Program-made: the position numbers and the translations under genes
Source of the DNA: Escherichia coli
GTDB lineage: Bacteria > Pseudomonadota > Gammaproteobacteria > Enterobacterales > Enterobacteriaceae
Direction: 5' to 3' (one strand)
NCBI RefSeq assembly: GCF_036507355.1
Contig: NZ_AP027877.1
DNA: 64,000 nucleotides
Part shown: piece after piece, positions 9,800 to 26,186 of the stretch
Position numbering within the stretch: the stretch's first letter is position 1
Layout of the letters: each line of letters opens with the position of its first letter
Notes under the pieces: model-generated
What the model was told of the DNA's origin: nothing
Database searches by the model: none
The model's input: only the letters and a program-made list of their open reading frames with translations

Positions 9800-9987
9800 G
9801 GTACTCCTCGGCTTGATGCACCGATCGTGACGCAAAATTCACTTTGATACAAGGAGAGTGCTAACCATCAGAATTATCTGGATATCCTGGCGAAGCCGCG
9901 TCAGTAACATATGCTGAATAGTGTTAGGCGTTAATTTTAGCCTGTTAATCAATACTATTAAGATTTATTAATCGCTTTAAGGAGAAG

Positions 9988-10218
9988 ATGATGAAAAAGA
10001 CTGCCGCAATTATTTCTGCCTGTATGCTGACTTTTGCCCTGAGCGCCTGTTCCGGTTCGAACTATGTGATGCACACCAATGACGGACGTACCATCGTCTC
10101 TGACGGCAAACCACAGACTGATAACGATACCGGTATGATTTCGTATAAAGACGCTAATGGCAACAAACAGCAGATCAACCGTACCGACGTGAAAGAGATG
10201 GTCGAACTGGATCAGTAA
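9988..10218 (+). CDS. ygdI: DUF903 lipoprotein YgdI
   Basis: 75-76 aa ORF with lipoprotein signal (LSACSG); second in-frame ATG at 9991 is an alternative start. Confidence 0.8.
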
Positions 10219-14249: not shown

Positions 14250-15668
14250 TCACACTTCCTCTATAAATTCAGGTTCAGTTTGCGGGTAGAAATAACGGTA
14301 CTGATAATGAATCTGTGCACGGGCTTCTTCCGGGCTGTTAAATTCCCCTACGCCATACCAACCGAACAGCGCAGCTCCTGCGACGGTCGTTTCGGCATCG
14401 TCGAGAACTTTTACCGGAATATCAAGCATATTGGCTTTAATCTGATTCCACAATGTGTTGCGACTTCCTCCACCGACTAACAATAATTCAGAGGCCTTAA
14501 AGTGCCCGATTTTTTCCAGCATCTGTAGATTGCGCTGTAATTGCGCAGTTAACCCTTCCAGCGCCGCGCGATAGAAATGCCCCCGCGTGGTATTAAGCGT
14601 CACTCCTTGCCAGCCAGCGTTCTGACACGACAATAAATCACACTGCATTTTCACGCCATCCGCGCCAGGCGCGATCAGACGAGCCTCTTCAATCAACATT
14701 TGCCAGGGTGTTTCAGCCGTCCAGAACAGTTTTCTCACCCATTCCAGCACGCCGGATGCCAGCCATTGCATACCTGGGTTATACAACCCTGCCTGGCTAT
14801 CCAGTTCGCAGGTGGAACCGGCGTACTGACTTAACAGCGAAGTATCAACCTGGGCGCTGCGAACCATTAAAATTTCCCATGTACCGGAAGAGAGCACGGG
14901 TTCATTTTGTTCAGCACCAGCGCCAAAAAGGGCGAACTGGGTATCGTGACCTGCGGAAATCACCGGTATGCCAACGGGTAAGCCGAGCATTGCTGCGGCG
15001 CTGTTCTGTAGCGTACCAATCTGTTCACCCGCTTCCACCAGACGAGGGAAGAGTCGGCGTGGAATACCGGTGGCTTGTAAAATTTGCGGACTGAAATCGC
15101 GTTGCTGGATATCCAGCATCTGGCTGGTTCCGGCCATCGTGATATCAGTAGTGAATTCGCCGGTTAAACGGTGGTTAATCAGCGACGAAATAAAGAGCCA
15201 GGCGTGCGCGCGTTCCAGCAGTTGTGGATGATTTTCTTTCAACCACACCAACTTATATAACGTATTGAAACTAAAGGCTCCGACGCCAGAAATAGCCTGC
15301 AACCGCTGTGCGGAGATTAACCGTTCAATATTGTCCATAACCGCTGCTGTTCGCGGACATTTCCAGCTAATGATCGGATAGAGCAGATTACCTTGCTTAT
15401 CTACCAGAGCGCCATCCACACCAAAGGTGGTGACGGCGATACCGCGGATGTGGCATTCAGTCAGTTCACTATTGATTTGCCGACAGCAATCAGCAAAGCG
15501 TTGCAAAATCGCGTCTAAAGACCACTGGTGCCAGGTGTTGTTTTCCATCGCGATATCGCTGGCATTAGGCGTTGAGGCGCGGGCAACAATTTTTCCCTGC
15601 CGATTAACCGCGATGGCCCTGACATTGGTCGCGCCACAGTCGAGTACCAGGATAACTTCTTGTTTCAT
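14250..15668 (-). CDS. fucK: L-fuculokinase (FGGY family)
   Basis: 472-aa ORF from ATG (rc 15666-15668) with AGGAG RBS; an upstream in-frame ATG at 15698 is an alternative start. Confidence 0.9.
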
Positions 15669-15776
15669 AATCGCTCCTGCAATATAGCCGGATAACATTG
15701 CTTATCCGGCTAACCACTCTTGCTTGTTCAGGCCCGGTAGCCGGAGCGACCGGGCATCACATCAGGGAGTAATGTA

Positions 15777-17552
15777 TTAACGCTTGTACAACGGACCGTA
15801 GTTCTGGCAAGCGCGGTAATCCTGGCCTTCAATATCCATGCCGTGCGCAGCCCAGGCAGAAGGACGATACACTTTGGTCTCTTCAACGTTGTGCATACAT
15901 ACCGGGATACGCAGCATGGAGGCGAGAGTGATAAAGTCTGCGCCAACGTGGCCGATGGTCAGAACCCCATGGTTAGCGCCCCAGTTCTCCATTACCGAAT
16001 ACACATCCGTAAACGGCCCTTTACCGGTGAGGCGCGGTGCAAACCAGGTGGTTGGCCAGGTTGAGTTGGTGCGTTTGTTGAGGATGTCATGCACATCCTT
16101 CGGCAATTCCACGCTCCAGCCTTCCGCGATTTGCAGTACCGGTCCCAGGCCTTTGATGATGTTGACACGAGTCATGGTGAACGGGACGCCGCCTTCGGTA
16201 AGGAAGCGGGAAGAGTAACCGCCGCCACGGAAGTATTCGTGGATCGCCGGGCACCATTCGGTAGCGGCGAGGCAAGCGTCAGCCTCTTGCTGAGAGATTT
16301 CCCAGTGTGGCTTCATCGTCGGGTTACCTTCGCTGTCGCGTTGTTTACAGGAACCGTCCAGCGCAGCAGAACCTGAGTTGATCAAATGGATGATGCCGTG
16401 TTCTGCCAGTCCATCGAGTTTATGCCCCGTTACACGCTCAATTGCTTCTGGTGACCAGTAGGTACGCACATCGGCAAATACCTGAGCGGTGCCGGTGAGC
16501 TGGTGACCCATTAGCATTGCCACGCCGTTAAGACTGTCGTTTTCGGTCGCCACGACAAAGGGTTCGCGCACGCCATTCCAGTCAAATGAACTGTTAAGGA
16601 TCGCTTCGGCGGTGTCGCCATTGGGATATTGATCGGTCCAGTGGCGTTGCCCCTGGAAGCCCGCAGCGATAGCGTTGTAGCCAAGTGATTCTTCCACGCG
16701 ACCAATATCGGCCAGTTTGCTGTTGCCTTGCATCATGTCGCGGATACACATCGCCATCAGTAAACTTTCGCGCAGAACTGCGCGGTTTTGCTCGGCATTG
16801 CGTTGATACTGTTTGTTATTTTCATCTTCGCCATAGCGGAAGTTTTTATCAGCCCAGGCCAGCGCCATTTCCAGTTCGGCTTCGTCGTAAATCTTCTGAT
16901 CGATACGGCGACGAAGTTCGGTCATATCCACCGCCTGGACTTTCATTCCCAGCCAGGATTCAAAGAAGTTGTGATCAACAATAGATCCGGCGATACCCAT
17001 CGAAACGCCGCCCAGCGACAGATAGCTTTTACCTTTCATGCTGGCGACGGCCAAACCGGCGCGGGCAAAGCGCAGCAGTTTTTCTTCAACATCGGCAGGA
17101 ATCGATGTGTCATCGGCATCCTGAACGTCATGACCGTAAATGGAGAATGCCGGGATGCCTTTCTGGCTGTGAGCTGCCAGAGCCGCTGCCAGGTAAACAG
17201 CGCCGGGACGTTCAGTGCCGTTAAAGCCCCAAATGGCTTTCGGGCGGGTTGGATCCATGTCGATGGTTTCACTGCCATAGCACCAGCAAGGCGTTACCGT
17301 AATGGTGAGGCCTACATTCTGGCTGCTGAATTTTTCTTCGCAAGCAGCGGCTTCAGCCATACCCGCGATACAGGTATCGGAAATGACACACTCGACGGCA
17401 GCTCCGCAGGCATGGCGCAGTTTCTCGGTCAGCAGTGTGGCCGTGGCTTTCGCCATATTCATTGTTTGTTCTTCAAGCGACTCACGAACACCCATGCGAC
17501 GACCGTCAATAACCGGGCGGATACCAATTTTCGGTAACGTATTAATTTTCAT
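15777..17552 (-). CDS. fucI: L-fucose isomerase
   Basis: 591-aa FucI-family ORF; N-terminus [14 protein letters not shown]. Confidence 0.9.
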
Positions 17553-17634
17553 CAGGATTCCTCATCTCGCTTTATTGGCGCTCTGCTAAGGCGGAGAAAG
17601 GAAACCACCGAAGCAGTAGTATTGGTCATTATTT

Positions 17635-17650
17635 GCTAACTCGAGTTAGC
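17635..17650. promoter_or_regulatory. Perfect 16-bp palindrome GCTAACTCGAGTTAGC (candidate operator), copy 1
   Basis: Exact self-complementary 16-mer centred on CG in the fucI / ABC-transporter divergent intergenic region. Confidence 0.5.
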
Positions 17651-17694
17651 TTAGGTTCGTAGGCTTTTTATGCACAACTTTTTTGTTGTTGAAA

Positions 17695-17710
17695 TGTGAG
17701 GGGCTTCACG
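17695..17710. promoter_or_regulatory. CRP-like site TGTGA-N6-TCACG
   Basis: TGTGAggggctTCACG, 9 of 10 matches to the CRP core consensus, lying between the two palindromes. Confidence 0.4.
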
Positions 17711-17873
17711 AGAAGTGGTTAAAATACGATCTCTGTCAAATTATTATTTAGCGGGACAAAAATAAATTTTACGTATAATCATATGTTTATTAGATTTTAA
17801 TGGTTATGCATCACAGTTTTAACTCAAATGATTTGGCTAATTTGTATACCTAAAATAGCTTTAAAAGGCGATC

Positions 17874-17889
17874 GCTAACTCGAGTTAGC
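17874..17889. promoter_or_regulatory. Perfect 16-bp palindrome GCTAACTCGAGTTAGC (candidate operator), copy 2
   Basis: Identical to the copy at 17635-17650; centre-to-centre spacing 239 bp. Confidence 0.5.
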
Positions 17890-18021
17890 AAAATGCGAAG
17901 AATAGATTGATGCGATGAATATTTATTCAAAGGTTATTCGTATCACAGTGGAGATGGCTTTAGTAGCGACGTTTATGCCGTACTTCACATTTTCAGTTTC
18001 TGATTATTGAGGAAAGCTGCA

Positions 18022-19521
18022 ATGTCCGAAACATTTTTGCAAATGAAGCATATCACCAAACGCTTTCCTGGAGTGTTGGCGCTTAATGACGTGCAATTTT
18101 CCCTACGCCGGGGCGAGGTTCATGCATTATTAGGTGAAAATGGTGCAGGAAAATCTACCTTAATGAAAATTTTGTCGGGGGTTTATCAACCTGATGAAGG
18201 CGAAATAATTTTTGAAGATAAACCAGTCTCATTTTCTGATCCGTTAAGTGCGCAAAACGTAGGTATTACTATTATTCACCAGGAATTTAATTTATTTCCC
18301 GAGCTTACAGTAGAGGAAAATATTTTTATCGGCAGGGAGTTTTGTAAAAAAAATCGCTGGCGTCTGGATGAGAAACAGCAACGCCAGGCGACGATCGAAA
18401 TTTTGCAAAAATTAAATTTGGCGATCAAACCAGATACTCTGGTTGCCGACCTTACGGTAGCTCAACAGCAGATGGTTGAAATTGCCAAGGCCATTTCGGT
18501 TAACGCCAGGATTCTCATTATGGATGAACCTACTGCGGCGTTAACAGAAACTGAAATTGAAAGCTTATTTCGCGTCACCCGCTTATTGAAAGAGCAGGGG
18601 ACCGGCATTGTGTATATATCCCACCGTCTGGAAGAGTTGGCGCTAATTGCCGACCGCGCGACTGTAATGCGTGATGGTCAGTACATCAGTACGGTGGATT
18701 ATGAGTGCGTAAAAATCAGCGATCTGATTGCCATGATGGTTGGTCGCGATTTAGGGAATATCTATCCCCGCCGCGAGGCCATACAGCAGCGGATGCCGGT
18801 TCTGGAGGTCAACGGACTGACGCGCAAAGGCGTACTCAACGATATTAATTTTACGCTTTATCGTGGCGAGATCCTCGGCTTTGCCGGACTGATGGGGGCA
18901 GGTCGTACTGAACTTGCGCGTGCGATTTTTGGTGCGGACTCCATTGACAGCGGAACGCTAAAGTTAAATGGTAAGGAAACCGTTATTAAAGATATTTCGG
19001 ATGCTATTCAGCAGGGAATTAGTTACCTGACGGAAGACCGAAAAAAAGAAGGGTTGGCACTGAATTTATCTGTTGAACGAAATATTATGTTAGGAAATTA
19101 CCCTGAGTATTCCGATCGTTTTGGGAATGTCGATTCGCGTCGTTGCCAACAAACCAGTGAGGAACAGGTAAAAGCGTTAAGGATTAAAACGCCAAATCTT
19201 GAACAGGCTGCATTAAATCTAAGTGGAGGAAATCAGCAGAAAATTATAATTGCACGTTGGGTGTGTAAAGATACTGATATTTTAATCTTCGATGAACCCA
19301 CTCGCGGCATTGATGTTGGCGCCAAACTGGAAATCTATGAGTTAATGAATCGCCTGGTGGCAAAAGGGAAATCAATCATCATGATCTCCTCTGAATTGCC
19401 GGAGGTGTTAGGAATGTGCGACCGTATTTTAGTGATGCGCAGTGGTCGAATTACTGGCGAACTTAGCGCAAATGAAGCGACACAAGAAAAAATCATGCAA
19501 TACGCGACGTTAGAGGATTAA
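18022..19521 (+). CDS. Sugar ABC transporter ATP-binding protein, two fused ABC domains (CUT2 family, RbsA/XylG-like)
   Basis: 499-aa product from ATG 18022 (GAGGA RBS); Walker A GENGAGKST, second-domain signature LSGGNQQK and degenerate second P-loop GLMGAGRTE; about 42% GC. Confidence 0.85.
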   Translation: MSETFLQMKHITKRFPGVLALNDVQFSLRRGEVHALLGENGAGKSTLMKILSGVYQPDEGEIIFEDKPVSFSDPLSAQNVGITIIHQEFNLFPELTVEENIFIGREFCKKNRWRLDEKQQRQATIEILQKLNLAIKPDTLVADLTVAQQQMVEIAKAISVNARILIMDEPTAALTETEIESLFRVTRLLKEQGTGIVYISHRLEELALIADRATVMRDGQYISTVDYECVKISDLIAMMVGRDLGNIYPRREAIQQRMPVLEVNGLTRKGVLNDINFTLYRGEILGFAGLMGAGRTELARAIFGADSIDSGTLKLNGKETVIKDISDAIQQGISYLTEDRKKEGLALNLSVERNIMLGNYPEYSDRFGNVDSRRCQQTSEEQVKALRIKTPNLEQAALNLSGGNQQKIIIARWVCKDTDILIFDEPTRGIDVGAKLEIYELMNRLVAKGKSIIMISSELPEVLGMCDRILVMRSGRITGELSANEATQEKIMQYATLED

Positions 19522-19524
19522 ATT

Positions 19525-20508
19525 ATGACTATCTCTGTAACCTCTCCAGACAGCAATAATAAGAAAATAAAGATAAATAAAGAACTTTTGATGCGCCTTG
19601 CGCCTCTTTTTAGCTTAATTATATTAGCGCTGTTTTTTAGTTTCAGCTCTCCCTTTTTCTTTAATACCGAAAATATCATGACGATTGCTCTGCAAACGTC
19701 GGTTATCGGCATTATGGCCATTGGGGTAACTTTCGTCATTATTACCGCGGGCATCGATCTTTCATTGGGTTCCGTGGTGGCTTTTTCTGGTGTCGCCGTG
19801 GGGATTTGCGCCACACTGGGCCTGCCGCTGCCAGTGTGTATTATTGCCGGTGTTTTAGCCGGTGGAATGTGCGGCTATGTGAATGGTTTGTTGGTCACTA
19901 AAATGACTATTCCACCGTTTATCGCTACCTTGGGCCTGATGATGTCCGTCAGAGGTATCAATATGGTGATGACCGACGGGCGCGCCATCTATTTTGCCGA
20001 TTACCCGATGTTCAAAACGCTCGCTCAGGGACGCTTGTTTGATGTGCTACCTTATCCTGTTTTCTACCTGGTCATTGTGGCGCTTGTCGGCGCTTACATC
20101 CTGAAGAAAACGGTTATTGGTCGCTATGTCTATGCCGTAGGCAGTAATGAAGTTGCTGCTCATCTTTCTGGTATTAAAGTTCAGCGCGTGAAAATTTTCG
20201 TCTATGCCTTCTGTGGTTTATTAACCGGGATTGCGGGTGTCATTCTCGCTTCTCGTCTCAACTCCGGACAACCGACGGTAGGTGTGGGTTATGAGCTGGA
20301 AGCTATTGCTGCGGTAGTGATCGGCGGAACCAGCTTAATGGGCGGTATTGGCACTATTGGCGGCACAATCATTGGCGCTTTCATTATGAGTGTACTGAAA
20401 AATGGCCTCAATTTAATGGGGGTCTCTCAGTTCTGGCAAATGGTCGCGATGGGCGTAGTTGTGGTCGCTGCCGTTTACCTCGATACATTACGCAAAAAGA
20501 TTCGTTGA
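19525..20508 (+). CDS. Sugar ABC transporter permease (RbsC/XylH-like)
   Basis: 327-aa polytopic membrane ORF starting 4 nt after the ATPase stop with GAGGA RBS. Confidence 0.85.
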   Translation: MTISVTSPDSNNKKIKINKELLMRLAPLFSLIILALFFSFSSPFFFNTENIMTIALQTSVIGIMAIGVTFVIITAGIDLSLGSVVAFSGVAVGICATLGLPLPVCIIAGVLAGGMCGYVNGLLVTKMTIPPFIATLGLMMSVRGINMVMTDGRAIYFADYPMFKTLAQGRLFDVLPYPVFYLVIVALVGAYILKKTVIGRYVYAVGSNEVAAHLSGIKVQRVKIFVYAFCGLLTGIAGVILASRLNSGQPTVGVGYELEAIAAVVIGGTSLMGGIGTIGGTIIGAFIMSVLKNGLNLMGVSQFWQMVAMGVVVVAAVYLDTLRKKIR

Positions 20509-20581
20509 CTTAGGCTCCCTGTTTTATCGGGAAACAACTGCCCTGACGTTAAGGGTGATTCACTCAGAACGGAGTACAACA

Positions 20582-21532
20582 ATGAAAACCAGGCATTTTA
20601 TCTATGCGTTATCTCTGCTGGCTTGCGTAAGTTCCAGCGCACTGGCGAAGGATTTAAATCTTCCGGTTGTTAGTAAAGGTTTCCAACATGAATTCTGGCA
20701 AACCGTAAAAATGGGGACTGAAGCTGCGGCTAAAGAGTTGGGGGATAAAACCAGCTATGTTGGCCCGGCTGATGAAACGCAAATAGCCGAGCAAATTCAG
20801 TTAGTCGAAAATGCGATGGCGCAGAAACCGAATGGCTTGCTTCTGGCAGCCCTCGACGCGAATGCGCTCGCCCCACTGGTAGAAACGGCAAATTCACGCG
20901 GTATCAAAGTGGTGACCTTTGATTCAGGCATCAATTCAGACATTCCGGTGAGTTTTGTCGCCACCAATAACCGTAAAGCAGGTGCTCAGGCAGCTGATGC
21001 CTTAGCCGCGCAGGTAAATAATAAAGGGAAAGTAGGGATTATCGCGCACGTTGCAGGAACATCTTCCGCTATTGAACGCTCGGAAGGCTTCATGGAGCGT
21101 ATGAAAGAAAAATATCCTGACATTAAAGTTTTACCCGTTCAGTACAGCGATGGTGACCCGCAAAAAGCGATGGATAAAACTATCGATATGATTCAGGCCA
21201 ATCCCGATCTTGCTGGGATCTATGGCACCAATGAAGGTTCAACGCTCGGGGTGGCGAATGCCATTGATAGCCAGAATCTGAAAGGTAAGGTGAAGGTCAT
21301 TGGTTTTGATAGTACGGAAGCGATTATTAACTTCCTGAAGAACGGCGTCATTCAGGGCTTTGTTGTTCAGGATGCATACCAGATTGGCTATCAAGGGATC
21401 AAAACGTTGAACGCGGCCCTTTCGGGACAAGCCGTTGAAAAAGAGATCGATATTCCCGTGAAATTTGTTAATGCCGAGAATATTAACACGCCAGAAATCG
21501 ACAAACTCCTGCACCCATTCGGTAAGAAATAA
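20582..21532 (+). CDS. Periplasmic sugar-binding protein (RbsB-like)
   Basis: 316-aa product from ATG 20582 (GGAG RBS); Sec signal MKTRHFIYALSLLACVSSSALA; the six-frame ORF starting at 20459 is an over-extension. Confidence 0.85.
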   Translation: MKTRHFIYALSLLACVSSSALAKDLNLPVVSKGFQHEFWQTVKMGTEAAAKELGDKTSYVGPADETQIAEQIQLVENAMAQKPNGLLLAALDANALAPLVETANSRGIKVVTFDSGINSDIPVSFVATNNRKAGAQAADALAAQVNNKGKVGIIAHVAGTSSAIERSEGFMERMKEKYPDIKVLPVQYSDGDPQKAMDKTIDMIQANPDLAGIYGTNEGSTLGVANAIDSQNLKGKVKVIGFDSTEAIINFLKNGVIQGFVVQDAYQIGYQGIKTLNAALSGQAVEKEIDIPVKFVNAENINTPEIDKLLHPFGKK

Positions 21533-21539
21533 AAAAATT

Positions 21540-21559
21540 GGGGATGAATTTTCATCCCC
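21540..21559. other. Perfect 8-bp-stem hairpin between the binding-protein gene and the kinase gene
   Basis: GGGGATGA-attt-TCATCCCC preceded by an A7 run; no T-tract on the plus side, so it is not a canonical plus-strand terminator. Confidence 0.4.
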
Positions 21560-21585
21560 GTTATCTCCAGCGTCAGGGAGGCTTT

Positions 21586-23166
21586 ATGCACAACGGTTAT
21601 TTTCTCGGTGTCGATGTCGGATCGGCCAGTGTCAGGGCAGGCGTTTACAGTGCCAGTGGCCACAGGCTGGCATTCGCTACTGCGCCCGTCTCCCAGTTTC
21701 GCCCTGGCGGCGAGCGTGTTGAACAGTCTTCGGCGGAGATCTGGCAACAAGTTTGTAAAACGGTGAAAGAGGCGACAGCTTTGGCAGGCATCCCTGGTTC
21801 CGCAATTCGCTCGCTAGGTTTTGACGCTACTTGCTCGCTGGTTGTTCTTGATGAACAAGGCCAGGGTTTAGCTGTTTCGCCCGGTGGATCTGCGAATCAC
21901 GACATTATTATGTGGATGGATCATCGTGCAACTGTCGAGACGGCGCAGATTAACGCGACGAAGGATCCTGCATTGCGCTACGTTGGCGGCGAAGTGAGCG
22001 TCGAGATGGAGTTACCAAAGTTACGTTGGTTGAAGACGCATCTACCGCAAACCTGGCAGGCCGCTCATCGCTTTTTCGATCTGGCGGATTTTCTGGTCTG
22101 GAAAGCAACAGGGCGAGACGTCGCGGGATTATGCACGCTAACGTGTAAATGGAATTATCTGGCTCATGAGCAACGCTTTAGCCATAGCTTACTGGAATCG
22201 ATAGACCTGATCGATATGCTTGAAAGAATTCCTGCCGACATTCTTCCGCCTGGCGCTGCCGTGGGAACATTAACCGCCACAGCTGCTGAAGAGTTAGGAT
22301 TAACGACTAATGTTATCGTGGCCAGTGGCTTGATTGATGCCCATGCCGGTGGCGTGGCGCTGGCTGGCGCGCACCCATCAGGAACGCTGGCATTGATAAG
22401 CGGAACGTCGAACTGCCATATGCTGTGTAGTGAAAAAGAGATATTCACCCCTGGCGTCTGGGGGCCATACTGGTCGGCCATGTTGCCAAATTACTGGCTA
22501 ACCGAAGGCGGGCAAAGCGCCGCAGGGGCGCTGGTGGAGTGGACGCTTCAGGAGTCAGGGGCAAGCGCAAATCTTTTTCACAAGGCGCAGCAACGCGGAT
22601 GTCATCCGATTCAACTGATTAATGAATGGGTAGCCGCCCTGGAAGCTAACGAGTCAGAACCCACACGAAATTTACATGTGCTTGCCGATCATCACGGCAA
22701 CCGTTCGCCACGAGCGCGGCCCGATGCCAGAGGCAGTGTTTATGGCTTAACACTGGAGCGTGGTGAAAGTCAGCTCGCGCGACTTTATCTTGCGACTTTA
22801 CAGGCAATAGCCTTTGGCACCAGACATATTATTGAAACTCTCAGGGAAAATGGGCATACCATTACCCGATTAACATTATGTGGTGGTGCAACGCACAACC
22901 CTTTATGGCTACGCGAATATGCAGACGTGACAGGCTGCGATATCCACCTGATGCAAGAAGAAGATGCCGTTACATTGGGTGCAGCAATTAGCGGCGCTGT
23001 TGCCAGCGGAGCATGGGGGGATTTTACATCTGCGTGTAAAGCAATGGTTGAAGCCGGAGAGGTTATTCAGGTAAATCCACAACGCCGTGAATTTTTAGAG
23101 CGTAAATACCGGGTTTACCTGACGCTTTGGGAGCAACAACAGGCAGTTAACCAACTGATGCAATAA
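21586..23166 (+). CDS. FGGY-family carbohydrate kinase, pentulose (ribulokinase-like) type
   Basis: 526-aa product from ATG 21586 (AGGGAGG RBS); FGGY N- and C-terminal domains (GVDVGSASVR, IIMWMDHRA); distinct from fucK. Confidence 0.8.
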   Translation: MHNGYFLGVDVGSASVRAGVYSASGHRLAFATAPVSQFRPGGERVEQSSAEIWQQVCKTVKEATALAGIPGSAIRSLGFDATCSLVVLDEQGQGLAVSPGGSANHDIIMWMDHRATVETAQINATKDPALRYVGGEVSVEMELPKLRWLKTHLPQTWQAAHRFFDLADFLVWKATGRDVAGLCTLTCKWNYLAHEQRFSHSLLESIDLIDMLERIPADILPPGAAVGTLTATAAEELGLTTNVIVASGLIDAHAGGVALAGAHPSGTLALISGTSNCHMLCSEKEIFTPGVWGPYWSAMLPNYWLTEGGQSAAGALVEWTLQESGASANLFHKAQQRGCHPIQLINEWVAALEANESEPTRNLHVLADHHGNRSPRARPDARGSVYGLTLERGESQLARLYLATLQAIAFGTRHIIETLRENGHTITRLTLCGGATHNPLWLREYADVTGCDIHLMQEEDAVTLGAAISGAVASGAWGDFTSACKAMVEAGEVIQVNPQRREFLERKYRVYLTLWEQQQAVNQLMQ

Positions 23167-23230
23167 GACAAAAGTTGAAAATACTTTTATGATTGTGATT
23201 TGACGTCTGGATGTTAACTGGGAAATACCT

Positions 23231-24229
23231 ATGGCTAAAACAGTAGAGCAGATAGCCAGCGACCTGAATTTATCGGTTACGACCGTGCGACTGGTGCTAA
23301 ATGGAAAAGCGGAACAATATCGAATCAGCGTCAAAACCCAAACGCGTATCAATGAATATGTTGAACACTATGGTTATATCATTAATCATTCCGCTCGCAG
23401 CCTTAAACTTAACAAAACTGATACATTAGGGTTGATTGTTCCCAACATATCCAACGTCTTTTTTGCTACGCTGGCAGAAAAACTTGAACAACGCTGCCGA
23501 CGTTCCGGATATCAACTTACGATCAGTTGTACTTATGATGATGTCGACTATGAAAATAAATTGACGAAAGCATTTATCGCACGAAATGTAGATGGTCTTT
23601 TTATTGTTCCTTCGACGCTGGAGAATCAGCAGCATCATTTACGCAAAATTCGTAAACCAATGGTTTTACTCGACCGTGATTTTAAATATACCGATAATGC
23701 ATTGGTAGAGAGTAATAATATTTCTGGCGGAGAAAAGTTGACACAAAATATTCTTGAGGCCGGGCAGACTCCAGTATGGTTTTTGCTGGGGGATGCCGGT
23801 TTGCCGAGTATCAGCGATCGTCTGACAGGTTATTTGAATGCGTTGGAAAAAAAAGGGATTACCCATCGCGATTGGGTGCGAGAAGGCCCGGTAAATACTC
23901 CGGAAGGCGGCTATGTCATTATGGAAAAACTCATTGAAGAGCAGGGATGTCCGCAGGCATTTATCGCCTCGTCTTTACCTGTGCTTGAAGGCGCTGTCCG
24001 CGCGATTCGCGACCGTCTTGGCGCTGTACCGCCAGAAATCAATATTGGCACTTTCGATGAACATCCCATGCTGGGATTTCTCGCCAACAATGTCTGGTCA
24101 ATGCAGCAGGATGAAAATGCCTGGGCAGAAAAAGCGTTCGAAATGATGTTAAGCGCGATCGAAGAAAGACCAGTCAAAAAAACAGTCAAAGTAGAAATGA
24201 AATTAATTAAGCGCATAAGAAAAAAATAA
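23231..24229 (+). CDS. LacI-family transcriptional regulator
   Basis: 332-aa ORF with N-terminal LacI HTH (VEQIASDLNLSVTTVRLVLNG) and periplasmic-binding-like effector domain; about 43% GC. Confidence 0.85.
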   Translation: MAKTVEQIASDLNLSVTTVRLVLNGKAEQYRISVKTQTRINEYVEHYGYIINHSARSLKLNKTDTLGLIVPNISNVFFATLAEKLEQRCRRSGYQLTISCTYDDVDYENKLTKAFIARNVDGLFIVPSTLENQQHHLRKIRKPMVLLDRDFKYTDNALVESNNISGGEKLTQNILEAGQTPVWFLLGDAGLPSISDRLTGYLNALEKKGITHRDWVREGPVNTPEGGYVIMEKLIEEQGCPQAFIASSLPVLEGAVRAIRDRLGAVPPEINIGTFDEHPMLGFLANNVWSMQQDENAWAEKAFEMMLSAIEERPVKKTVKVEMKLIKRIRKK

Positions 24230-24362
24230 TAATCGCCAAAAGATAATCAGGCTATTGAACAATGATATTCAGTGGCCACCCCTTACTAAAAATAACCCCG
24301 TCTTCATTTGCGGTGCTGTTTTACGCAACAAGGCGAGCTGGAACTGTATCTGGAGAATAGAG

Positions 24363-25010
24363 ATGGAAAGAACACGTTTATCCCGTGAAATAATTGAAAC
24401 CTGTCTGGAAATGACGCGCCTTGGGTTAAATCAGGGGACTGCGGGGAATGTCAGCACACGTTTTGAAAACGGCATGTTGATTACTCCAAGCGGTATTCCT
24501 TATGAAAGAATGACGGAGAATATGATTGTCTATGTTGATGGCAACGGCAAATACGAAGAAGGTAAGATTCCTTCCAGCGAATGGCGTTTCCATATGGCGG
24601 CCTATCAAAGCAGACCGGATGCCAACGCGGTTGTTCACAATCATGCCGTTCATTGCACAGCAGTTTCCATTCTTAACCGACCGATCCCCGCTATTCACTA
24701 CATGATTGCGGCGGCTGGCGGTAATTCTATTCCTTGCGCGCCTTATGCGACCTTTGGAACACGCGAACTTTCTGAACATGTTGCGCTGGCTCTCAAAAAT
24801 CGTAAGGCAACTTTGTTACAACATCATGGGCTTATCGCTTGTGAGGTGAATCTGGAAAAAGCGTTATGGCTGGCGCATGAAGTTGAAGTGCTGGCGCAAC
24901 TTTACCTGACGACCCTGGCGATTACGGACCCGGTGCCAGTGCTGAGCGATGAAGAAATTGCCGTAGTGCTGGAGAAATTCAAAACCTATGGGTTACGGAT
25001 TGAAGAGTAA
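24363..25010 (+). CDS. fucA: L-fuculose-1-phosphate aldolase (class II); N-terminal third diverged from the K-12 sequence
   Basis: 215-aa product from ATG 24363 (GGAGA RBS); residues from about 70 onward match K-12 FucA as I recall it, the first ~70 differ at about 18 positions. Confidence 0.85.
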   Translation: MERTRLSREIIETCLEMTRLGLNQGTAGNVSTRFENGMLITPSGIPYERMTENMIVYVDGNGKYEEGKIPSSEWRFHMAAYQSRPDANAVVHNHAVHCTAVSILNRPIPAIHYMIAAAGGNSIPCAPYATFGTRELSEHVALALKNRKATLLQHHGLIACEVNLEKALWLAHEVEVLAQLYLTTLAITDPVPVLSDEEIAVVLEKFKTYGLRIEE

Positions 25011-25037
25011 TTTCGTAAAGCAACAAGGAGAAGGATG

Positions 25038-26186
25038 ATGGCTAACAGAATGATTCTGAACGAAACGGCATGGTTTGGTCGGGGCGCTGTTGGGGCTTTA
25101 ACCGATGAGGTGAAACGCCGTGGTTATCAGAAGGCGCTGATCGTCACCGATAAAACGCTGGTGCAATGCGGCGTGGTGGCGAAAGTGACCCATAAGATGG
25201 ATGCTGCAGGGCTGGCATGGGCGATTTACGACGGCGTAGTACCCAACCCAACAATTACTGTCGTCAAAGAAGGGCTCGGTGTATTCCAGAATAGCGGCGC
25301 GGATTACCTGATCGCTATTGGTGGTGGTTCTCCACAGGATACTTGTAAAGCGATTGGCATTATCAGCAACAACCCGGAGTTTGCCGATGTGCGTAGCCTG
25401 GAAGGACTTTCCCCGACCAATAAACCCAGTTTACCGATTCTGGCAATCCCCACCACAGCAGGCACTGCGGCAGAAGTGACCATTAACTACGTGATCACTG
25501 ACGAAGAAAAACGGCGCAAGTTTGTTTGCGTTGATCCGCATGATATCCCGCAGGTGGCGTTTATTGACGCTGACATGATGGATGGTATGCCTCCAGCGCT
25601 GAAAGCTGCGACGGGTGTCGATGCGCTCACTCATGCTATTGAGGGGTATATTACCCGTGGCGCGTGGGCGCTAACCGATGCACTGCACATTAAAGCGATT
25701 GAAATCATTGCTGGGGCGCTGCGAGGATCGGTTGCTGGTGATAAGGATGCCGGAGAAGAAATGGCGCTCGGGCAGTATGTTGCGGGTATGGGCTTCTCGA
25801 ATGTTGGGTTAGGGTTGGTGCATGGGATGGCGCATCCACTGGGCGCGTTTTACAACACTCCACACGGTGTTGCGAACGCCATCCTGTTACCGCATGTCAT
25901 GCGCTATAACGCTGACTTTACCGGTGAGAAGTACCGCGATATCGCGCGCGTTATGGGCGTGAAAGTGGAAGGTATGAGCCTGGAAGAGGCGCGTAATGCC
26001 GCTGTTGAAGCGGTGTTTGCTCTCAACCGTGATGTCGGTATTCCGCCACATTTGCGTGATGTTGGTGTACGCAAGGAAGACATTCCGGCACTGGCGCAGG
26101 CGGCACTGGATGATGTTTGTACCGGTGGCAACCCGCGTGAAGCAACGCTTGAGGATATTGTAGAGCTTTACCATACCGCCTGGTAA
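25038..26186 (+). CDS. fucO: L-1,2-propanediol oxidoreductase (iron-containing alcohol dehydrogenase)
   Basis: 382-aa Fe-ADH family ORF (an additional ATG lies at 25035). Confidence 0.9.
   Translation: MANRMILNETAWFGRGAVGALTDEVKRRGYQKALIVTDKTLVQCGVVAKVTHKMDAAGLAWAIYDGVVPNPTITVVKEGLGVFQNSGADYLIAIGGGSPQDTCKAIGIISNNPEFADVRSLEGLSPTNKPSLPILAIPTTAGTAAEVTINYVITDEEKRRKFVCVDPHDIPQVAFIDADMMDGMPPALKAATGVDALTHAIEGYITRGAWALTDALHIKAIEIIAGALRGSVAGDKDAGEEMALGQYVAGMGFSNVGLGLVHGMAHPLGAFYNTPHGVANAILLPHVMRYNADFTGEKYRDIARVMGVKVEGMSLEEARNAAVEAVFALNRDVGIPPHLRDVGVRKEDIPALAQAALDDVCTGGNPREATLEDIVELYHTAW

Follow-up and report, generated by a model that had tools for sequence, protein, structure and literature searches.

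A candidate LacI-family repressor and its proposed twin operators at the predicted divergent fucI and ABC-transporter promoters of the Escherichia coli B-type fuc locus

In Escherichia coli K-12, the fucA–fucP control region carries both divergent promoters, four CRP sites and sites for FucR with the core CGGtCAtt, and FucR acts there as an activator that responds to fuculose-1-phosphate (PMC11011485). A second form of the locus, known from E. coli B, has an ABC transporter in place of fucP and includes the kinase DarK; the papers on it (Elsinghorst and Mortlock 1994; Saif et al. 2023) concern gene content and growth. The 64,000-nucleotide stretch of E. coli DNA analysed here (contig NZ_AP027877.1; hereafter the window) contains a fuc locus of this E. 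coli B/C type, the darK D-arabinose cassette variant: its gene order is that of the 'variant 2' fuc operon of Saif et al. (PMC10221146), and its kinase is DarK of the E. coli B D-arabinose cluster (PMC12307932; PMC6150544). The spacer between fucI and the transporter operon contains two identical 16-bp palindromes, O1 and O2. The present study suggests, with a probability that we put at about 0.8, that these palindromes are operators of the LacI-family regulator encoded in the same cassette and that this regulator acts as a repressor. Although the cassette and DarK were already known, the regulator–operator pair and the promoter architecture are undescribed in the searchable literature: the terms LacI, promoter and binding site never occur in the paper of Saif et al. 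(PMC10221146), a compendium of LacI-family regulons lists no fucose regulator for the Enterobacteriales (PMC4052901), and a literature search for the 16-mer returned shRNA hairpin constructs only.

The locus resembles several described systems in part. As in K-12, fucI, fucK, fucU, fucA and fucO lie under a divergent intergenic region with CRP sites and are fucose-inducible, but the circuit appears to be of the repressor type, and its operators are unrelated to the FucR sites. The nearest characterised relative of the regulator is Cra/FruR. The two share a similar protein length and domain order and a 16-bp, CG-centred palindromic operator with outer GCT...AGC and central TCGA, and FruR systems likewise have multiple operators in a divergent intergenic region (PMC7897506). 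The regulator is, however, only 27% identical to E. coli Cra, its recognition helix reads SVTTVRLV rather than SRTTASYV, and the half-sites differ at positions 4 and 6. Whereas Cra/FruR serves fructose and central metabolism, the protein here would be a local fucose/D-arabinose regulator, and its effector is probably a free sugar, not fructose-1-phosphate. The predicted arrangement is reminiscent of lac, in which more than one operator, with one at or after the start of a class I CRP promoter (-61.5), accompanies sugar-inducible expression. Unlike LacI, the regulator has no counterpart of the C-terminal tetramerization helix; its two operators are identical and serve one divergent promoter each, in contrast to the main operator plus auxiliaries of lac, and looping would here be no more than a possibility. 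The gal system also pairs a dimeric LacI-family repressor with two operators, and looping by proteins of this kind without a tail is possible through dimer–dimer contacts (PMC3505978). In gal, however, the operators are 113 bp apart, bracket one promoter region and require HU for looping, while here the distance is 239 bp, no HU site is known and each operator overlaps a separate promoter.

The palindrome pair and the regulator

Three features carry the argument.

17635..17650, no strand: candidate operator O1, GCTAACTCGAGTTAGC, an exact palindrome overlapping the predicted fucI -10 and start (about -9 to +7 on the minus strand).
17874..17889, no strand: candidate operator O2, same sequence as O1, an exact palindrome at about +6 to +21 of the predicted ABC-operon promoter.
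23231..24229, plus strand: gene of a LacI-family (Cra/FruR-like) regulator, the proposed cognate repressor, with recognition helix SVTTVRLV.

The sequence-only reading, an earlier inspection of this DNA, had reported two identical palindromes 239 bp apart. Both copies are indeed exact, self-complementary throughout and centred on CG, and their start-to-start distance is 239 bp; the inverted symmetry of the pair reaches 19 nt (TTT-O1 and O2-AAA). When up to three mismatches are allowed, GCTAACTCGAGTTAGC has two matches in the whole window, namely the two spacer copies, against 0.13 expected from shuffles, of which 1 in 100 reached two. A position weight matrix (PWM) built from the orthologous sites scores O1 and O2 at 30.8 bits and no other window site above 8 bits. 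Perfect palindromes of at least 16 bp number three in the window, where about one is expected by chance, but two identical copies sharing one spacer are not chance, and a perfect 16-bp, CG-centred palindrome occurring twice between fucI and the ABC genes has the form of a LacI/GalR operator. No further operators, auxiliary or autoregulatory, were found near the regulator gene or fucA in E. coli; the paralog operons of Musicola and S. fonticola are the only ones with weak sites of this sort, about 66 bp ahead of the regulator gene. The third perfect 16-bp palindrome, TGCTGGATATCCAGCA at 15103-15118 within fucK, is unrelated to the operators and of a kind found at chance-level frequency.

The LacI-family gene that had been placed at 23231-24229 is real by NCBIfam, Pfam and structure-database matches. 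The 332-aa protein has the LacI/GalR layout, with an N-terminal helix-turn-helix (HTH; PF00356, residues 6-51) followed by a periplasmic-binding-protein (PBP)-like effector domain (PF13407, PF13377 and PF00532), and it aligns over its full length to the PurR, RbsR and CcpA models as well as to Cra, PurR and CcpA PDB chains. Its top NCBIfam matches are TIGR02417 (236 bits, residues 4-328 aligned to 1-326) and NF008452 (218 bits). These scores fall below the respective cut-offs of 389.55 and 385, which, together with the fucose/D-arabinose context, places the protein outside the Cra/FruR orthologous group. The nearest solved structure is Cra chain 7x7h (131 bits), which we take to be the V. cholerae protein. 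The C-terminus is level with that of Cra, and the alignment shows no additional C-terminal segment.

The evidence that joins palindrome and regulator is their co-occurrence. Orthologs of the regulator (70-96% identity) are present in Citrobacter, E. whittamii, Salmonella, Buttiauxella, E. lignolyticus, Lelliottia, Atlantibacter, Superficieibacter and Yokenella, and a paralog group (53-60% identity) is found in Musicola, Serratia, Brenneria and Cedecea. In 28 loci from about ten enterobacterial genera, fucI faces a transporter operon as it does here (Escherichia, Salmonella, Citrobacter, E. lignolyticus, Lelliottia, Buttiauxella, Affinibrenneria, Atlantibacter and a Morganella-labelled contig are among the sources). 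Each of these loci has two sites with zero to two mismatches, apart from the O2 of Atlantibacter with five, and the sequence around the operators has diverged. The distance from O1 to O2 is 238 bp in four, 239 bp in 14, 240 bp in nine and 241 bp in one, with O1 sitting 83-104 bp upstream of fucI. In a 13-taxon alignment of the fucI–transporter spacer, which served as a phylogenetic footprint, 14 of the 16 columns of O1 are invariant. Cassette-free E. coli genomes lack the palindrome region.

The association also holds where the genes change. In one locus (L061), a Na/H-antiporter-family transporter and an alpha-L-fucosidase replace the ABC genes, and the position of O2 is unchanged; the regulator thus stays with the fucose genes despite the change of transporter. 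Yokenella has a unidirectional transporter–fucosidase–regulator operon with a single site 75 bp upstream. The operon of the paralog is different again, comprising a DarK-like FGGY kinase, a 550-aa isomerase-like protein, a DHDPS-like protein, a BNR_2 protein, an MFS transporter and the LacI-family regulator, and here GCTAACTCGAGTTAGC lies, exact or with one mismatch, immediately upstream of the first gene. Every adjacent regulator retains the helix S(V/I)TTVRLV, which is kept even by a 58%-identity paralog in a different operon and by a 39%-identity beta-proteobacterial homolog; Cra and Cra-like proteins, by comparison, have SRTTAS(Y/M)V. In Atlantibacter, where the operators have drifted, the helix carries L21F (TTVRFV). 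Thus, the motif tracks the regulator and its recognition helix over about 20 genera and three operon contexts, which bears out the earlier proposal that the palindromes belong to the LacI-family protein of the island.

The sequence-only reading had also called for a genome-wide search for the 16-mer. An exact scan of 100,044 species genomes (298 Gb) returned 69 sites in 53 stretches, with no more than three loci in any genome, and 57 of the 69 lie at fuc/ABC loci, in DarK-like kinase operons or beside a regulator of the TTVRLV type. Because a naive random expectation also gives about 69 sites in 298 Gb, the signal is the placement of the sites and not their number. The remaining sites, about 12, have a histidine kinase, a MelB-like transporter, Hcp or no assignable family as neighbours and are treated as chance or unknown. 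The possibility that the element is a dispersed repeat, a recombination scar or an RNA hairpin with no role in transcription control is hardly credible: perfect palindromes can form hairpins, and the element contains CTCGAG and lies near the cassette edge, but copies are few, none was found beyond the pair in the window or in 40 kb of two orthologous loci, 17 of 18 otherwise unassigned sites that were checked are intergenic, no T-run follows either copy and there is no Rfam match at E ≤ 1. A dispersed repeat is excluded by the exact scan together with mismatch and PWM scans of the window and loci, and a structured RNA or riboswitch is ruled out by the Rfam result.

Further observations concern the wider distribution. 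In Superficieibacter (L007 1190-2624, L030 5139-6588), a DUF2961 gene found within a few kb of the regulator and fucI has an exact operator copy 76-91 bp before it; this gene, presumably of the GH172 glycosidase family, may be an extra member of the regulon. Hosts of the paralog operon include several Enterobacterales, Vibrio salinus and beta-proteobacterial metagenome-assembled genomes (the Musicola locus is L005 3075-11005; further loci are L063, L019, L021, L024, L026, L028, L036, L045, L047, L056, L015 and L053), and its 550-aa isomerase-like protein has no NCBIfam match.

Predicted promoters and the proposed switch

At and between the operators, the following elements were recognized or predicted.

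17648..17677, minus strand: predicted fucI promoter, -35 TTGTGC at 17677-17672, 18-bp spacer, -10 TAAGCT at 17653-17648, start at about 17641.
17695..17710, no strand: CRP site 1, TGTGAggggctTCACG, centre 17702.5, at -61.5 to the predicted fucI start, a class I position.
17810..17819, no strand: (G)TCACAnTTT, a possible CRP half-site, centre about 17807.5, at about -60.5 to the predicted ABC start; conserved in the 13 taxa.
17825..17835, no strand: small palindrome CAAATGATTTG, abutting or overlapping the predicted ABC -35; CAAA-nn-ATTTG conserved in the 13 taxa.
17833..17861, plus strand: predicted ABC-operon promoter, -35 TTGGCT at 17833-17838, 17-bp spacer, -10 TAGCTT at 17856-17861, start at about 17868.

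The segment between the operators (17651-17873) has 30.5% G+C compared with 50% for the window. The footprint divides it into two conserved flanks. On the side of O1, the conserved blocks are O1 with the adjoining TA(A/T)G, ACAAC at 17674-17678 and TGTGA-N6-TCACG at 17695-17710; on the side of O2, they are (G)TCACAnTTT at 17810-17819, CAAAtgATTTG at 17825-17835, ATAG at about 17855-17858, TTTAAA and O2 itself. The CRP-like site proposed earlier is therefore present, with TGTGA-N6-TCACG invariant in the 13 taxa, and in each of the 28 loci exactly 60 bp separate its start from that of O1. From this site to the TCACA block, the distance is 115-117 bp in the same loci, and the centres of the two CRP-type sites are 105 bp apart. 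The central segment of about 85 bp is held in length across genera and is unconserved in sequence.

The promoter hexamers and start sites as placed here are predictions from sequence, and they follow the conserved flanks: TTGT and TA(A/T)GCT of the fucI promoter are conserved over the 13 taxa, and the ABC promoter has an invariant TTG in its -35 and an invariant TAnnnT in its -10. With the CRP centre at -61.5 from its predicted start, the fucI promoter would have a geometry that fits class I. So placed, the promoters are flanked or overlapped by the palindromes, much as the sequence-only reading had supposed, and the arrangement suggests one operator per promoter. That reading had also pointed to a TATAAT at 17774-17779; the hexamer is there, but it falls in the unconserved, AT-rich middle, would imply a leader of about 236 nt and is probably not a working -10. 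The small palindrome CAAATGATTTG may be a site for a further factor. A separate pattern lies in the predicted fucI leader, where a terminator-like hairpin with a T-rich run (17604-17620, minus strand; ACTACTGCTTCGGTGGT TTCCTTTCTC) is retained only in part by Citrobacter and Salmonella; it may serve as an attenuator or may have arisen by chance.

Taken together, these features are consistent with two divergent, cAMP-CRP-dependent promoters, each of which would be served by one operator. Repressor bound at O1, over the fucI -10 and start, would block binding of RNA polymerase, and repressor bound at O2, just past the start of the promoter for the ABC genes, darK, the regulator gene and probably fucA–fucO, would prevent initiation or clearance. 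The repressor would be released by a sugar; L-fucose is the most likely inducer, with D-arabinose as a second one in E. coli B. The assignment of a repressor rather than an activator follows from operator position only. For E. coli B, Elsinghorst and Mortlock reportedly found in 1988 that the inducers are free L-fucose and D-arabinose, not the ketose-1-phosphates, and that all the enzymes, D-ribulokinase included, are co-ordinately regulated; a sugar-binding repressor of the LacI type would account for both. Fucose induction of fucI has been described in BL21 (PMC10221146), and it persists there although the K-12 FucR-dependent promoter is absent.

Several points weigh against this reading. 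The predicted hexamers are weak, matching at 3/6 positions for the fucI -35, the fucI -10 and the ABC -10 and at 4/6 for the ABC -35, and a simple consensus promoter scan did not select either promoter. The second CRP-type site is only a half-site, whose partner half is weak, so that its assignment is uncertain. The Pfam LacI HTH match of the regulator is itself weak (E = 6e-4). Activation by a Cra-type protein has a precedent in V. cholerae FruR, whose operator in that case lies between -35 and -10 (PMC7897506). Finally, FucR, a protein of the DeoR type, is intact and kept in the E. coli and Citrobacter carriers, and may still contribute to control.

The FucR of the window is a complete 243-aa protein, though the K-12 target region is gone. 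Its core, CGGnCA, is absent from 17553-18021, 23167-23230 and 24230-24362, and these intergenic regions accordingly do not group with the K-12 FucR promoters. The sole FucR-core-like match in the spacers of the locus is CGGGCAT (15743-15757) in the fucK–fucI spacer. Beside O1 there is also a near-match, TGGTCATT (17623-17630), which is restricted to E. coli (E. whittamii has TGATCATT) and is probably due to chance.

Looping, activation and other binding proteins

Within the repressor reading, it is debatable whether the two operators act separately or together. In the looping model, dimers on O1 and O2 would join so that a loop of about 239 bp encloses both promoters and the CRP sites, and full repression would need both operators. 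Several regularities favour such a loop. The distance between the operators is confined to 238-241 bp in the 28 loci and is built of fixed sub-segments of 60, 115-117 and 63-64 bp, while in the same taxa the neighbouring leaders vary (83-104 bp before fucI, about 39-164 bp before the transporter genes); the central 85 bp keeps its length with no conservation of sequence; and the 105 bp between the CRP-type sites correspond to about 10 helical turns. Moreover, LacI/GalR proteins that lack a tail can form dimer–dimer contacts and loops (PMC3505978), and E. coli FruR has been described as a tetramer (PMC3505978; PMC7897506).

However, the protein, at 332 aa, stops level with Cra and has nothing in the place of the LacI tetramerization helix, and V. 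cholerae FruR, which is of the Cra type, as is the closest solved relative of the regulator (chain 7x7h), is reported to be a dimer (PMC7897506). Unidirectional operons of the same regulator family have single operators, so one site suffices, and the number of operators follows the number of promoters. The spacing spans 4 bp, and its phase hangs on the assumed helical repeat: the earlier claim that the two sites are in phase stands at 10.4 bp per turn, which gives 22.98 turns, but not at 10.5 (22.76 turns) or at 11.0-11.3 (21.2-21.7 turns). In addition, a fixed promoter and CRP geometry accounts for most of the conservation of length. On this balance we regard looping as possible but doubtful, and we think it rather probable, from the arrangement of the predicted sites, that each promoter is controlled by its own operator with no obligatory loop.

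A second alternative, which we consider improbable, is that the regulator is an inducer-dependent activator or a dual regulator, like V. cholerae FruR at fruB. There, activation is exerted from the in-promoter operator, and another FruR operator covers the start site (PMC7897506); the weakness of the predicted hexamers is also typical of activated promoters. Yet neither O1 nor O2 falls between -35 and -10, both being placed at the predicted starts or downstream of them, CRP at -61.5 already provides activation, and the Musicola site ends 14 nt before the start codon of the kinase, a roadblock position.

Less probable still, to the point of being a distant prospect, is binding of the palindromes by Cra or by the DeoR-type FucR, with the LacI-family neighbour a coincidence. 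Every one of these hosts has Cra, in E. coli the gene for FucR is a close neighbour, and the half-site GCTAACTC matches the Cra consensus, GCTGAAWC, at six of eight positions. The motif is, however, found only alongside a regulator of the TTVRLV type, the Betaproteobacteria included, and it occurs in hosts with no cluster-adjacent FucR (E. lignolyticus, the host of L061, Yokenella and Musicola). That the cassette-free E. coli genomes lack the region, and that the FucR motif CGGtCAtt is unrelated, also speaks against either protein.

The cassette, its origin and significance

The repressor reading favoured here has to be set in the context of a locus that was exchanged as a unit. On the plus strand, the gene order is ABC ATPase, permease, binding protein, FGGY pentulose kinase, LacI-family regulator, fucA and fucO; fucR, fucU, fucK and fucI lie on the minus strand.

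15777..17552, minus strand: fucI, first gene of the divergent fucIKU(R) unit proposed to be controlled from O1 (TIGR01089 at 1250 bits).
18022..23166, plus strand: first part of the proposed regulated operon (ABC genes and darK).
18022-19521, plus strand: ABC ATPase (NCBIfam; RefSeq annotation of BLR(DE3)).
19525-20508, plus strand: permease (NCBIfam; RefSeq annotation of BLR(DE3)).
About 20582-21532, plus strand: substrate-binding protein (NCBIfam; RefSeq annotation of BLR(DE3)).
About 21586-23166, plus strand: FGGY pentulose kinase DarK (NCBIfam; identified in the literature, PMC12307932).
23165..23193, plus strand: promoter-like box AAGACA-17-TATGAT upstream of the regulator gene, from a promoter scan.
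24363..26186, plus strand: fucA and fucO, whose K-12 promoter is gone; read-through from the ABC operon is probable.

The TATGAT box is possibly the regulator gene's own constitutive promoter, and the motif CTTTTATGATTG is conserved in Escherichia, Citrobacter, Salmonella and E. lignolyticus. The 133-bp spacer between the regulator gene and fucA was searched for an operator, a FucR core and a terminator pattern, and none was found, which makes read-through into fucAO from the transporter promoter probable.

A cassette of about 7 kb stands in place of fucP and the entire K-12 fucA–fucP control region. Homology to K-12 ends 12 nt upstream of the fucI start codon and restarts 21 nt inside fucA. 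The first 200 bp or so of fucA (24384-24583) diverge from K-12 by about 25% and the sequence thereafter by about 1%, and the 5' end of fucI (17500-17564) likewise diverges more than the remainder of the gene. This pattern indicates that the cassette came in by homologous replacement, the break-points falling within fucI and fucA. The circuit would have come in this way from a Citrobacter- or E. whittamii-like fuc locus, and its arrival would have removed the FucR- and CRP-dependent fucPIK and fucAO promoters of K-12. A darK-less Citrobacter-type locus (L003 about 9860-10000, on a C. amalonaticus-like contig) retains the 3' end of darK (...CTTAACCGACTGATGCGGTAAGACAAAAG), from which it follows that darK was lost there and not gained in E. 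coli; the same locus also has the TATGAT box before its regulator gene (window counterpart 23150-23193).

Of 5,426 complete E. coli genomes, 381 (7.0%), B/BL21 among the lineages, carry a single copy of the regulatory spacer, and the others have none; Saif et al. gave the prevalence of the variant as 4.7% of genomes and 7.5% of isolates (PMC10221146). The fucI–ABC spacer is unannotated in the carrier E. coli genomes, and a copy of 97.8% overall identity keeps the operators unchanged. The best E. coli matches to the spacer have 99.1% identity, and none is identical throughout. In BLR(DE3) (L001 15962-17386), an IS1A insertion splits fucA; the gene is intact in the window, which sets this DNA apart from the BL21/BLR lineage.

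The most far-reaching interpretation is that in about 7% of E. coli (including BL21) and most Citrobacter, the FucR activator circuit was swapped by recombination for a Cra-like repressor that senses free sugar, with a CRP-assisted loop over both promoters, a rigid 239/105-bp geometry and an orphaned FucR. We hold this composite picture to be unlikely as a whole and offer it tentatively. The repressor reading would nonetheless provide a concrete mechanism for the difference between E. coli B and K-12 in the regulation of the fucose/D-arabinose enzymes, and the comparison points out previously unannotated control elements in BL21-type production strains, Citrobacter and Salmonella. The strictly kept 239-bp geometry offers a clean test of whether LacI-family dimers with no tail loop DNA. 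The regulator and its palindrome are also a candidate sugar-inducible operator–repressor pair whose code (helix SVTTVRLV, half-site GCTAACTC) is unlike that of Cra at defined positions; if the reading is true, this pair would be a ready-made fucose/D-arabinose switch orthogonal to lac. Furthermore, a single species would then possess two nonhomologous circuits for the same catabolic genes, one built on an activator and one on a repressor, exchanged as a cassette.

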